DNA of 32,000 bases. Origin: Bacillus subtilis subsp. subtilis str. 168 (GTDB lineage: Bacteria; Bacillota; Bacilli; Bacillales; Bacillaceae). Shown here in pieces: positions 1,413-5,995 of the stretch. The stretch covers positions 1,080,001 to 1,112,000 of the forward strand of contig NC_000964.3 of NCBI RefSeq assembly GCF_000009045.1. Reading direction: 5' to 3'. Positions within the stretch are counted from its first letter, which is position 1; every line of letters starts with the position of its first letter. The position numbers and the translations under genes were made by a program. The notes beneath the pieces were generated by a model. The model was not told where the DNA came from and ran no database searches. It worked only from the letters and a program-made list of their open reading frames with translations.

Positions 1413-2804
1413 TTAAAGCATCATCACAGCTGCGAGGGTTGTCACCAAAAGGCCAATCGCGACGGGAATGAAGTTTTTTCTGGCAAGCTCAAAAGGATCA
1501 ACTTTGCAAATGGCCGCGGCGGGAATCAAAGCCCATGGGACCAGTGTTCCTCCGCCCACCCAGATGGCAGAGATTTGTCCGAGCGCGGTCAGAATAGCGG
1601 GATCGGCATGGAGAGCGGACGAAAAGAGCTTTGCGATGGAGCCGGCGAGAGAAATGCCAGAAAATCCTGAGCCGTCAAGGCCTGTTATGGCTCCAGCGGC
1701 AGTTAATGCAGTGGCGGCAAGCTCCTTTGACATAGGCATCATATGGGATAAAGCAATGCCAAGATCGTTGACAATGCCGTGGGAACCTTTAGGGAGTGAA
1801 GTGCCCAGTATGCTTTCATAGCCTGAGTCGCCAAGATAAAAGAAAGCGGCAATCGGGATGACGGGGCCGAAAACCTTAAAACCGAACTTAAATCCGTCAA
1901 TAAAATAGCCGGTGATTTTTTCAAGCCCTTTATGCTTATACACGAAAAAATGAACGGTAAAGAGGATACAAATTGCAGACCCGCCAATTAACGCGGTTGC
2001 ATCATTTCCTTGTAGGTTAAACAAGAGCATGCAGGCGATATCTGCAAGAAAGGCAAGCGGAATCAAAAAAGCCAGTATGGACCGCAGGCGTTTTGGCAAG
2101 TACAGCGAGTTGTCTTGTTCGCCGGAAAGAACGGGGGAAAAAGAAGTGGGATGCTCCTGTTTTTTGCGTTCGCGCTGAATCATGATAAAGGCAGCAGTTG
2201 TTGTTGTCACACCCATAATCAGCACAAGCGGAATACTGGCCGAGACGACATCACCGACTGGAATGCCTGCTGCATCCGCAGTCAGCTTTGGCGCCGCCTG
2301 AATGACAAAGTCTCCTGACAGGGCAAAACCGTGTCCGAATAAGTTCATGGCCATGGCCGCGGCAAGAGGCGTCAAACCGGCACGTGCGGCTGCGGGGAGC
2401 AGGACGGCGCCGATCAAAGCGACACCCGGAGAAGGCCAGAAGAATAGAGAAATGGCGAACATCAGGCCTCCAATCAGCCAATAGGCAGTCACAGGCCCTC
2501 TCACAAGGCTTGCAAAGGGAGAAATCATCGCTTCATTTATCCCTGTTTTTGTTAACAAATCACTCATTGAAACGATAAAGCAAATGATGAAAATCGTGGG
2601 CAGCAGTTCGCCGGCCGCATAGATAAAGCTGTGGAATAAACTGCTGACAGAAGCTGAAAGTGAATGGCTGGCCCATAGCGATATGATAAAAATGCCGAAT
2701 AGAGAAATAAATGTCGTGTCTTTTCTCAGCAGCATAAATAGGATAATTGCACCGATAAAAAACACATACAGAACATGGACAGGCAAAATCCCGACTTCCA
2801 TCAT
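1413..2804 (-). CDS. yhfA: Polytopic membrane protein, transporter-like (about 11-12 predicted TM segments)
   Basis: 463-aa ORF that is hydrophobic throughout. ATG at 2804 lies 6-7 nt after GGAAGGAG. It is 72 nt upstream of yhaA on the same strand. Confidence 0.85.
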   Translation of the reverse strand: MMEVGILPVHVLYVFFIGAIILFMLLRKDTTFISLFGIFIISLWASHSLSASVSSLFHSFIYAAGELLPTIFIICFIVSMSDLLTKTGINEAMISPFASLVRGPVTAYWLIGGLMFAISLFFWPSPGVALIGAVLLPAAARAGLTPLAAAMAMNLFGHGFALSGDFVIQAAPKLTADAAGIPVGDVVSASIPLVLIMGVTTTTAAFIMIQRERKKQEHPTSFSPVLSGEQDNSLYLPKRLRSILAFLIPLAFLADIACMLLFNLQGNDATALIGGSAICILFTVHFFVYKHKGLEKITGYFIDGFKFGFKVFGPVIPIAAFFYLGDSGYESILGTSLPKGSHGIVNDLGIALSHMMPMSKELAATALTAAGAITGLDGSGFSGISLAGSIAKLFSSALHADPAILTALGQISAIWVGGGTLVPWALIPAAAICKVDPFELARKNFIPVAIGLLVTTLAAVMML

Positions 2805-2869
2805 CGATCACTCCTTCCGCTTACAGATTATTCATAGGCGGGCGGAAGGTGCCGGGACAGAGGGGAGGG

Positions 2870-3184
2870 TTATGATGGAAGATGAACATTGATCTGTTTC
2901 AGCTGCTCAATCAGATGATGCCTTAATCCTCTATTCGCTTTTTGCAGATGTTTTGGGAAGCATTCAGGAGAAAAAATGACGCACCCTTCAGCAAGCCAGT
3001 TTTTTCTATAGGCGATGATGCTTTCCGATGGCTCTATATGAGTTATCCTCGTGCTGCATCTCGTACTCATCAAATCCGAACTGAAAACCGCAGCACGGGC
3101 AGATTTCATGAGAATGATTGCCTTCATGATCATATGGCGGTTCAGCCAATCCTTAAACCCGCAGACTGGGCAAGTATGCTTCAT
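2870..3184 (-). CDS. yhgB: Small Cys-containing protein of the CPCC zinc-ribbon type; intact 104-codon ORF but with an apparently out-of-frame internal segment (see findings)
   Basis: ATG at 3184 is preceded by GGGAGGAAAGCAAA. The ORF-track start at 3220 lies in the loop of the hmoB terminator hairpin and has no RBS. The N-terminus MKHTCPVCGF is a zinc-knuckle. The second knuckle (EICPCCGF) is only encoded in the alternative frame at 3006-3152. Confidence 0.6.
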   Translation of the reverse strand: MKHTCPVCGFKDWLNRHMIMKAIILMKSARAAVFSSDLMSTRCSTRITHIEPSESIIAYRKNWLAEGCVIFSPECFPKHLQKANRGLRHHLIEQLKQINVHLPS

Positions 3185-3198
3185 TTTGCTTTCCTCCC

Positions 3199-3228
3199 AA
3201 TAAAATAAGCTGCCGGACATGCCGGCAG

Positions 3229-3231
<3 letters not shown>
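3199..3231 (-). terminator. Rho-independent terminator (or attenuating hairpin) directly after hmoB
   Basis: On the - strand, AGCTGCCGG-CATGT-CCGGCAGCT forms a 9-bp GC-rich stem (3208-3216 / 3222-3230). It is followed by TATTTTATT. The stem overlaps the hmoB TAG stop at 3229-3231. Confidence 0.55.
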
Positions 3232-3756
<525 letters not shown>

Positions 3757-3850: not shown

Positions 3851-5995
3851 ATGTTTAAGATAAAGAAAAAGAAACTTTTTATACCTATCATTATTTTAGT
3901 GTTAACTGCTTTTCTCGCTTTAATAGGATATATTTCAATTATTTTTCTCGGCCATTATGTCATAGATGAAAAAAAGCTTATTCTTCATGCTTCTTCAAAA
4001 ATTGTTGATCAAAACGGAGATGAGGTTGCAAGCCTGTATACAGAAAATCGCGAGCCGGTCTCGATCAATGAGATTCCTAAGCAGGTCAGAGAAGCGTTTA
4101 TCGCTGTTGAGGATAAAAGGTTCTATGAGCATCACGGCATTGATGCAAAATCCGTCGGAAGGGCAGTGTACCGCGATATATTAGCAGGCGGAAAGGTGGA
4201 AGGCGGAAGCACGATCACCCAGCAGCTTGCCAAAAATATTTTTCTGACACATGACAAAACATTTCTAAGAAAAACAAAAGAAGTGATCATTGCGATTAAT
4301 CTTGAACGGGATTACAGCAAGGACAAGCTGCTTGAAATGTATTTAAACCAGCTTTACTTCGGACACGGGGTTTACGGCATACAAGCGGCGTCCCACTATT
4401 ATTTTAATAAAGAAGTAAAAGATTTGACTGTATCTGAAGGCGCTGTTTTGGCCGCTATTCCGAAGGCGCCTTCTACGTACTCTCCAATTTTGCACCCTGA
4501 TAAAAATAAGGAGCGGCGTGATACAATTCTAGGTATGATGAATGACCAAGGCTATATCAGTGCGAAAGAGGCTGTCACCGCACAGGGCCGGACGCTTGGA
4601 CTGCATGTGAAGAAACAGTCGGAAACACCTTGGTTTGACAGCTACATTGACCTTGTGATCAAAGAGGCGGAAGACAAGTATTCCATTTCCGGAGAGCAGC
4701 TTCTTCAAGGCGGATACACGATCAAGGTGCCGCTCGATTCGAAGCTGCAGAAGACGGCTTACCAGGTGATGAAAGAGGGAAGCTATTATCCCGGAACAGA
4801 TCAGAATGCCGAGGGAAGCGCGGTCTTTATTAATAACAAGACAGGCGGTGTAGAAGCGGCCATCGGCGGAAGGGATTACACATCCAAAGGATATAACCGT
4901 GTCACAGCTGTCCGCCAGCCGGGTTCCACATTTAAGCCGCTTGCTGTATACGGACCGGCGATGCAGGAAAAGAAATTTAAGCCATATTCTCTATTGAAGG
5001 ATGAGTTGCAGTCCTACGGAGATTATACGCCGAAAAACTACGACAGCCGGTATGAGGGCGAAGTCACTATGTCTGACGCCATTACGTACAGCAAAAACGC
5101 GCCGGCTGTCTGGACGCTGAATGAGATCGGCGTCGAAACAGGGAAATCTTATTTGAAAGCAAACGGCATTGATATCCCTGATGAAGGCCTTGCTCTTGCT
5201 CTAGGCGGCTTGGAAAAAGGCGTTTCACCGCTCCAGCTTGCCGGCGCGTTTCATACATTTGCCGCGAATGGAACGTATACTGAACCCTTCTTTATCTCGA
5301 GCATAATAGATGAAGACGGAGAAACAATAGCCGATCATAAAGAAGAAGGAAAGCGGGTATTCAGCAAGCAGACGTCTTGGAATATGACGAGAATGCTGCA
5401 GCAGGTAGTCAAAAAGGGAACGGCCACGTCCGGCACCTATCACGGCGACCTGGCGGGAAAAACAGGTTCAACATCTTATACAGGCGTCTCCGGCGCGACA
5501 AAGGACGCCTGGTTTGCAGGCTATACGCCGAAAATAACCGGGGCAGTCTGGATGGGCTATGACAAAACGGATCAAAACCATTATTTGAAAGCCGGGAGCT
5601 CATACCCGACGCGGCTGTTTAAGGATATTTTGACACAGGCAGGAGAAACCGGTCATGTGTTCACAAAGCCTAAAAACGTTAAAGAACTGGAAAGCCCGAT
5701 TGAGCTGAAGCCGGTCAAAACACTCACAGCCGATTACACATTTAAAGCAGCGGGGCTCTTTACTATTGAATTAAAGTGGGACGCTCAAGAGGATGATCGG
5801 GCCGTATACAGAATTTATGTAAACAAGGACGGCGAGGAGACGCTTCTTGATTCGGTTGAAGGGAAGGGAAGCTATGAAATTCCTTATGCCAACTTATTTT
5901 CGGGCGCGTCTTATAAAATTGTGCCTTATAATACACAGACAAAAAGAGAAGGGGAAGGAACCGATTACGTTCAGCCAAAATTGTTTTCCTCTTAA
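3851..5995 (+). CDS. pbpF: Class A penicillin-binding protein (glycosyltransferase plus transpeptidase), PBP2c
   Basis: 714 aa with an N-terminal TM anchor. GT51 motifs are AVEDKRFYEHHGID, GGSTITQQ and RKTKE. Transpeptidase motifs are STFK, SKN and KTGST. RBS is GAGGTGA. Confidence 0.95.
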   Translation: MFKIKKKKLFIPIIILVLTAFLALIGYISIIFLGHYVIDEKKLILHASSKIVDQNGDEVASLYTENREPVSINEIPKQVREAFIAVEDKRFYEHHGIDAKSVGRAVYRDILAGGKVEGGSTITQQLAKNIFLTHDKTFLRKTKEVIIAINLERDYSKDKLLEMYLNQLYFGHGVYGIQAASHYYFNKEVKDLTVSEGAVLAAIPKAPSTYSPILHPDKNKERRDTILGMMNDQGYISAKEAVTAQGRTLGLHVKKQSETPWFDSYIDLVIKEAEDKYSISGEQLLQGGYTIKVPLDSKLQKTAYQVMKEGSYYPGTDQNAEGSAVFINNKTGGVEAAIGGRDYTSKGYNRVTAVRQPGSTFKPLAVYGPAMQEKKFKPYSLLKDELQSYGDYTPKNYDSRYEGEVTMSDAITYSKNAPAVWTLNEIGVETGKSYLKANGIDIPDEGLALALGGLEKGVSPLQLAGAFHTFAANGTYTEPFFISSIIDEDGETIADHKEEGKRVFSKQTSWNMTRMLQQVVKKGTATSGTYHGDLAGKTGSTSYTGVSGATKDAWFAGYTPKITGAVWMGYDKTDQNHYLKAGSSYPTRLFKDILTQAGETGHVFTKPKNVKELESPIELKPVKTLTADYTFKAAGLFTIELKWDAQEDDRAVYRIYVNKDGEETLLDSVEGKGSYEIPYANLFSGASYKIVPYNTQTKREGEGTDYVQPKLFSS

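Follow-up and report, generated by a model that had tools for sequence, protein, structure and literature searches.

The annotated yhgB gene of Bacillus subtilis subsp. subtilis str. 168 is very probably a non-functional relic, in which restoration of the reading frame was a by-product of decay rather than a selected rescue. Within the window, i.e. the whole 32,000-nucleotide stretch of DNA analysed here (NC_000964.3, positions 1,080,001 to 1,112,000), the 104-codon yhgB ORF is a hybrid, with an ancestral N-terminus, an out-of-frame middle and an ancestral C-terminus. The proposed course of events comprises two steps. A 2-nt deletion and an adjacent GGT-to-AAC change would have arisen within B. 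subtilis, leading to a truncated protein of 59 residues; much later, the 168-type laboratory haplotype would have lost one G from a GGG run at codon 12. Together the deletions remove 3 nt, and no stop codon chanced to lie in the +1 frame between them, so that a 104-codon ORF would then have re-formed and been annotated as a gene. The product of the re-formed ORF lacks two of four zinc ligands and 39 native residues. The phenomenon is of an already known kind, in which a pseudogene has entered the annotation as a gene and an immunity-like orphan gene decays.

The yhgB locus and its ancestral frame

The protein is named YhgB in source records of B. subtilis subsp. subtilis, and no mention of yhgB or BSU10090 was found in the searchable literature. 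The locus comprises the following features.

2870–3184, minus strand: annotated yhgB ORF, 104 codons and stop, starting MKHTCPVCGFKDWLNRHMIMKAIILMKSARAAVFSSDLMSTRCSTRITHIEPSESIIAYRKNWLAEGC...
3152–3184, minus strand: codons 1–11, MKHTCPVCGFK, in the ancestral frame, with the first Cys pair (C5 and C8)
3035–3151, minus strand: codons 12–50, DWLNRH...RITHI, 39 codons one base off the ancestral frame
3006–3152, minus strand: middle region in the ancestral frame, GLAEPPYDHEGNHSHEICPCCGFQFGFDEYEMQHEDNSY, then RAIGKHHRL and a stop, with the second Cys pair (CPCC)
2870–3034, minus strand: codons 51–104 and stop (EPSESIIAYRKNWLAEG...), ancestral frame regained, family-invariant R, W and G residues included
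3192–3198, minus strand: Shine–Dalgarno-like GGGAGGA, 7 nt 5' of the ATG, kept in orthologues
3208–3230, minus strand: terminator-like hairpin of the upstream ABM-domain gene hmoB/yhgC, adjoining the yhgB ribosome-binding site and kept in the orthologue alignment
3229–3738, minus strand: ABM-domain gene, same-strand neighbour of yhgB
1413–2804, minus strand: gene for a 463-aa membrane protein, same-strand neighbour of yhgB
3851–5995, strand opposite to yhgB: class A penicillin-binding protein gene

Translation of frame 1 of 2870–3184 (minus strand) yields the 104-aa protein MKHTCPVCGFKDWLNRHMIMKAIILMKSARAAVFSSDLMSTRCSTRITHIEPSESIIAYRK..., which contains only the first Cys pair. The second frame of the same segment reads V, a stop, GLAEPPYDHEGNHSHEICPCCGFQFGFDEYEMQHEDNSYRAIGKHHRL and a further stop at 3006–3008, and down to that last stop it encodes GLAEPPYDHEGNHSHEICPCCGFQFGFDEYEM.... 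Both the ORF with a single Cys pair and the second frame with CPCC ending at 3006–3008, as described in the initial annotation, were thereby re-derived. At this locus, the CPxC...CPCC motif is found only via the ancestral frame, with CPVC at codons 5–8 and CPCC in the second frame. The start codon and the ribosome-binding site of yhgB are both intact, and 168 retains the C-terminal 54 codons without damage; the earlier impression that the annotated frame becomes family-like again downstream is borne out by codons 51–104, which are in the ancestral frame and encode invariant residues. Peptides specific to the annotated frame of 168 would be DWLNRHMIMK and SARAAVFSSDLMSTR, the peptide expected for 3610 being GLAEPPYDHEGNHSHEICPCCGFQFGFDEYEMQHEDNSYR.

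In all species, the terminator-like hairpin of hmoB/yhgC ends approximately 10 nt 5' of the yhgB ribosome-binding site, a gap with no space for a promoter of its own, so that yhgB would need read-through or a promoter within the upstream gene. Between the stop of yhgB and the start of the downstream membrane-protein gene lies a spacer (2805–2862, minus strand) whose conservation across the B. subtilis group exceeds that of yhgB. An inverted repeat within this spacer, CCUUCCGC...GCGGAAGG, pairs with the ribosome-binding site of the downstream gene; the MFE is -21.1 kcal/mol (z = -1.76) and there is no Rfam match, nor did Rfam give one anywhere within 2600–3400.

A search with the repaired chimera retrieved intact orthologues, 104–106 aa in full length, which carry CGFKGLTEPPYDHEGNHSHEICPCCGFQFGFDDYEM.REDGSYLEPSESIIAYRKNWLA within one frame and come from B. 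cabrialesii, B. inaquosorum, B. vallismortis, B. spizizenii, B. halotolerans and B. stercoris, with full-length matches also in B. mojavensis. As the initial annotation had led one to expect, these relatives read the ancestral middle in a single frame and do not contain the annotated middle peptide, which was found only in B. subtilis sequences of the same cluster and in one out-of-frame ORF call. The gene order pbpF, ABM gene, yhgB, yhfA (the 463-aa membrane protein) and M20 peptidase is the same in all retrieved B. subtilis-group loci, and orthology within the group is supported by this synteny. Judged from the orthologous sequences, the second frame is the true ancestral frame and its resemblance to the family is not due to chance. 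The ancestral gene, which shares the high probability of the relic explanation as a whole, would have comprised approximately 105 codons and specified a four-cysteine zinc ribbon (CPVC...CPCC) with a short helical domain C-terminal to it.

The residues that are invariant in the family alignment (C5, C8, G9, L13, C29, C32, G33, G37, R61, W64 and Q95) are all present in the repaired 168 sequence, and the annotated 168 frame is without L13, C29, C32, G33 and G37. AlphaFold2 modelling with the same family alignment gave a mean pLDDT of 75.9 for the intact orthologue versus 61.9 for the 168 protein. The first four ten-residue blocks of the intact orthologue reached 83, 89, 86 and 78; over residues 11–40, the last three of these values compare with 48, 33 and 41 in the 168 protein, the model of which has a pLDDT below 50 at residues 14–38. 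The dN/dS among intact orthologues was 0.06–0.6, and 1.15 for B. stercoris versus B. cabrialesii, compared to 0.05–0.11 for the neighbouring ABM gene; given the small counts, these ratios are only suggestive of a weaker constraint on yhgB. Even in the intact B. subtilis-group proteins, two tryptophans that are nearly invariant across the wider family are gone, and two insertions are present.

Two deletions, their order and their distribution

The indels were placed by nucleotide alignment with 6, 11 and 15 syntenic orthologous loci, and all three alignments agree on the following changes.

3151–3152, minus strand: lesion 1, the GG remaining after a 1-nt loss from ancestral GGG; AAGGGATTG to AAGGATTG
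3035–3036, minus strand: lesion 2, junction of a 2-nt deletion; ancestral TCATATTTAGAG to TCATATAGAG
3042–3044, minus strand: GGT to AAC, three adjacent substitutions, Gly to Asn in the ancestral frame, present in every lesion-2 allele

Lesion 1 (ancestral AAGGGA to AAGGA, with GG at 3152–3151) is exactly the event that had been proposed from the sequence of 168, a 1-nt loss in AAG-GGA-TTG at 3151–3153. The second indel had been correctly sought within 3010–3045, where it lies at 3036/3035, but it is a 2-nt loss and not a 1-nt gain. The two jointly restore the frame, as had been claimed: the losses of 1 nt at 3151/3152 and of 2 nt at 3035/3036 amount to a net -3 nt (104 versus 105 codons), the sum is a multiple of 3, and the frame between them is open. 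The predicted out-of-frame stretch does exist, although it is 39 rather than approximately 45 codons long (codons 12–50, 3151–3035); it stands in for 40 ancestral codons, including the second Cys pair and the invariant L13, G33 and G37. The GGT-to-AAC substitutions sit 6 nt from the 2-nt deletion, and the two together suggest a single complex mutational event rather than four separate ones.

In orthologues, the shifted frame contains just two stops between the lesion sites. The first, a TGA at the second shifted codon, is absent from all B. subtilis alleles via an ACG-to-GCT change that is older than both lesions, while the second, a TAG that coincides with the site of lesion 2, was eliminated by the 2-nt deletion. 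Since both stops were already gone, selection is not needed to explain the openness of the shifted frame. An 87-aa ORF in this frame predates lesion 1, which fused it to the original start codon.

Lesion 2 is common to loci L088, L089 and L093–L099. The GGG run is kept in all eight other B. subtilis loci examined, and GG is found only in L098 and L099, which are identical to the window. Except for the window haplotype, every examined B. subtilis locus with lesion 2 has GGG and encodes a 59-aa product, which in the ancestral frame ends ...EDNSYRAIGKHHRL; a single frameshift with a truncated 59-aa product, which the initial annotation had considered for the window, is thus true of the lesion-2-only strains and not of the window, in which both lesions are present. 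Between 0 and 35 substitutions in 2361 bp separate the lesion-2-only loci from the window, and two of these loci, L094 (CP015375.1) and L096, show no mismatches over 2361 bp save the one G. B. subtilis NRS6120 has neither lesion and carries a +1 insertion of its own. In these alignments, lesion 2 is the older and is widespread, not universal, in B. subtilis, while lesion 1 is very recent and, as far as sampled, limited to the 168-type haplotype.

The locus (2870–3220) has been annotated variously as encoding 87, 104 or 116 aa (P0021, P0007 and P0022, respectively). The 87-aa ORF (MIMKAII...) is called by gene callers in many B. subtilis genomes, the loci of which have lesion 2 and GGG, and the P0021 call is a reliable marker of this lesion-2-only allele; its name record is KCTC 1028 = ATCC 6051a, a strain characterised as less domesticated than 168 (PMC4440976). 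The name records of P0007 and P0022 are subsp. subtilis, PY79 and QB928. Both retrieved P0007 loci are 100 % identical to the window, and 22 further P0007 contigs were grouped as having the same neighbouring proteins. The exact 104-aa protein occurs on at least 1000 contigs, in 2101 indexed blocks, 142 of which have a longest contig above 1 Mb.

Strain 168 goes back to the Marburg/NCIB 3610 lineage, from which it was obtained after mutagenesis, and frameshifts in sfp and swrA are known to set it apart from its less domesticated relatives. Lesion 1 resembles such frameshifts in being a single-base indel in a short homopolymer that is missing from an otherwise identical haplotype; unlike them, it strikes an already broken gene, and no phenotype is therefore expected. 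The descent of 168, together with the few base differences between 168 and NCIB 3610, suggests that lesion 1 may reflect the laboratory history of 168, the label '168-specific' being based on haplotype identity and one protein name (ATCC 6051a). The number of base differences has been given as 41, and the yhgB locus is not listed in the text or supplements of that study (PMC2474695); no variant list is given in PMC5477328 or PMC4440976.

Probable decay of yhgB and alternative readings

Independent inactivating lesions are found in at least eight other B. subtilis-group lineages, among them the following.

NRS6120: +1 insertion
Bacillus sp. N13C7 and a related contig: in-frame TAG stop and 1-nt insertion
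B. stercoris D7XPN1: 10-nt deletion
B. subtilis/stercoris allele: internal deletion, second Cys pair gone
B. tequilensis: several deletions and substitutions at conserved residues
B. mojavensis ATCC 51516: TTG start and +1 insertion
B. halotolerans ATCC 25096: 1-nt and 29-nt deletions

The sequences point to a loss of yhgB function, and the meeting of the two deletions is probably best read as a coincidence in an already dead gene. Selected rescue is not supported, because the frame-restoring deletion is limited to a haplotype identical to GGG genomes and the truncating allele persists in diverged strains. The compensation proposed in the initial annotation may thus be retained as a frame-restoring sum, but presumably not as a rescue, given that the 2-nt deletion came first and the 1-nt deletion lies on the window haplotype only. 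Chance would be enough to explain the intact C-terminal 54 codons, and weak selection may possibly have acted on them. If yhgB is such a relic, a named gene of the main Gram-positive model organism would need to be re-annotated and treated as a pseudogene, and the 104-aa YhgB product would be unsuited to family building or functional screens. The locus would also serve as a worked example of how two unrelated deletions recreate a long ORF by chance, and hence as a warning for ORF-based gene calling, while lesion 1 is a candidate marker that may distinguish 168-type strains from otherwise identical relatives.

It is unlikely, though conceivable, that the 59-aa truncated zinc ribbon of the lesion-2-only strains is still functional, which would make the 168-type 1-nt deletion the real loss-of-function event. 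All four Cys and the conserved ribbon sequence are kept in six loci differing by no more than 1.5 %, but the truncated product is missing the entire C-terminal domain with the invariant R61, W64 and G68. Moreover, the lesion-2-only allele of L088 additionally has the invariant G37 and the neighbouring D replaced, and unrelated inactivations have occurred in NRS6120 and in sister species.

A selected compensatory frameshift, by which the second indel was favoured for rescuing a functional C-terminal domain and the 104-aa hybrid works, is very improbable. Such a rescue would agree with the indel sum of 3 nt, the open frame, the intact ribosome-binding site and the family-invariant R, W, G and Q still encoded in the C-terminal 54 codons. 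However, the frame-restoring lesion lies on only one haplotype, with otherwise 0 differences in 2361 bp, which leaves too little time for visible selection, and most of the examined B. subtilis alleles persist with the truncating lesion alone. The loss of two of the four zinc ligands, the modelled disorder of the protein middle and the outright loss of the gene in many sister lineages also argue against a working hybrid.

A sequencing or assembly error in the homopolymer, raised in the initial annotation and in keeping with the position of lesion 1 within a short G-run and with the disagreement among gene callers (87, 104 and 116 aa), has a negligible probability, since the 104-aa protein recurs in 2101 blocks, on at least 1000 contigs and in independently named strains, and the GGG allele is equally reproducible. 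Programmed ribosomal frameshifting that restores the zinc ribbon in translation, likewise raised at the outset, can practically be dismissed: the GGGTTTA string just 5' of lesion 1 is out of phase with frame 0 (GGG TTT AAG), downstream RNA folding is no better than that of shuffled sequence (z = +0.28), the full protein would take two separate shifts, the shift site is missing from near-identical relatives, and Rfam gives no match. As a candidate programmed frameshift site, the locus was rejected for want of an in-phase slippery heptamer, a stimulatory structure and conservation.

The YhgB-like family and its toxin neighbours

Profile search identified 3259 relatives of YhgB, most of them 80–105 aa long and nearly all unassigned in Pfam. 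The annotated 168 protein has no Pfam or NCBIfam match, and the repaired protein matches Cys_rich_CPCC (PF14206), as the initial annotation had anticipated; the canonical membership it implied is not upheld, as the score of the repaired chimera (17.7 bits) lies below the gathering threshold of 24.5 and only the zinc-ribbon part is aligned. The intact orthologue P0001 scores 19.1 bits and typical single-domain relatives 11.5–18.7 bits, within an overall range of 11–19 bits, and Pfam offers no better match than PF14206 for the repaired protein or for 10 of the 11 orthologues. Among the single-domain members checked, the alignment covers approximately positions 2–38 of the 75 in the profile (2–59 in P0001), i.e. 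the ribbon part only. The threshold is passed only by tandem two-copy relatives of approximately 176 aa, and in some relatives of this length (P0073–P0080) the entire YhgB-like unit is duplicated in tandem. The YhgB-like family resembles PF14206 in its N-terminal CPxC...CPCC four-cysteine ribbon and differs from it in the sub-threshold scores and partial profile coverage; by these comparisons, it is a neighbour of PF14206 and not a canonical member. A PDB sequence search with the family profile returned generic zinc-ribbon matches only, Foldseek of the AlphaFold2 model against the PDB gave nothing with E below 2, and the literature search on PF14206 and CPCC yielded one unrelated paper only.

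The gene neighbourhood was sampled in 74 retrieved non-subtilis (distant) loci. The same-strand ORF directly upstream of the YhgB homologue ends in a conserved domain of approximately 90 aa in 33 of the 74 by profile search and in 36 by clustering, the domain being absent from 41 of the 74. The gap between this ORF and the homologue ranges from -93 to +55 nt, mostly from -15 to +31 nt. Carriers of the domain include proteins with RHS repeats, PT-TG, PT-HINT and Ntox50 modules, as well as short signal-peptide or lipoprotein-like forms. Against the PDB, the domain aligns over 80 residues with 8ey4_A, a 'PT-VENN domain-containing protein' (E = 4.9e-20), and its similarity to colicin D (1tfo and 1v74, E 0.5–0.7) is marginal; that the domain acts as an RNase would be a guess. 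It corresponds to no Pfam family and has two conserved His as well as conserved Tyr, Ala, Lys and Tyr. Examples are found at L008 2068–2985 of Bacillus sp. CH30_1T, L015 2–2989, L050 102–2978, L072 55–2988, L080 27–2975 and approximately 28 other loci, always just 5' of the YhgB homologue.

A toxin gene with its immunity gene directly 3' is the standard polymorphic-toxin layout (PMC3482391). Since the neighbourhood matches this layout, the intact YhgB-like family may, on that basis alone, be taken to encode an immunity protein against an RNase-like polymorphic-toxin domain. Such a toxin domain was found neither in the window nor in the B. subtilis-group loci, and a protein search with one toxin-domain sequence gave a single hit. 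With no such partner in these loci, yhgB would be an orphan in this group, which fits its repeated loss, and the B. subtilis-group gene would be a decaying orphan immunity copy under relaxed selection. Like the orphan immunity genes of Zhang et al. 2012 (PMC3482391), the family members at 33 of the 74 distant loci lie directly 3' of, and co-directional with, a toxin C-terminal domain on RHS, PT-TG and PT-HINT proteins, and the B. subtilis copy is partnerless. Unlike known immunity families, the YhgB-like family matches no Pfam Imm family, and unlike polyimmunity clusters, B. subtilis yhgB sits between housekeeping genes; 'CPCC' and 'Cys_rich' do not occur in the available text of the survey (PMC3482391).

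The chances appear to be evenly balanced that the YhgB-like proteins make up an unnamed and widespread family of immunity proteins directed at an 8EY4-type, possibly colicin-D-like, toxin domain, that its B. subtilis-group members are orphans decaying independently and now at many different stages, and that the 168 allele carries an additional laboratory-lineage mutation. If this is true, a large uncharacterised zinc-ribbon family would be tied to a structurally solved toxin domain, and its immunity function would be directly testable. Some carriers are unusual: some Clostridia loci have the toxin-like C-terminal domain joined to DUF4417, and in two Verrucomicrobia loci it is fused to fn3 and purple-acid-phosphatase N-terminal domains, L039 1992–2981 and L048 2005–2970 being loci of such unusual fusions.
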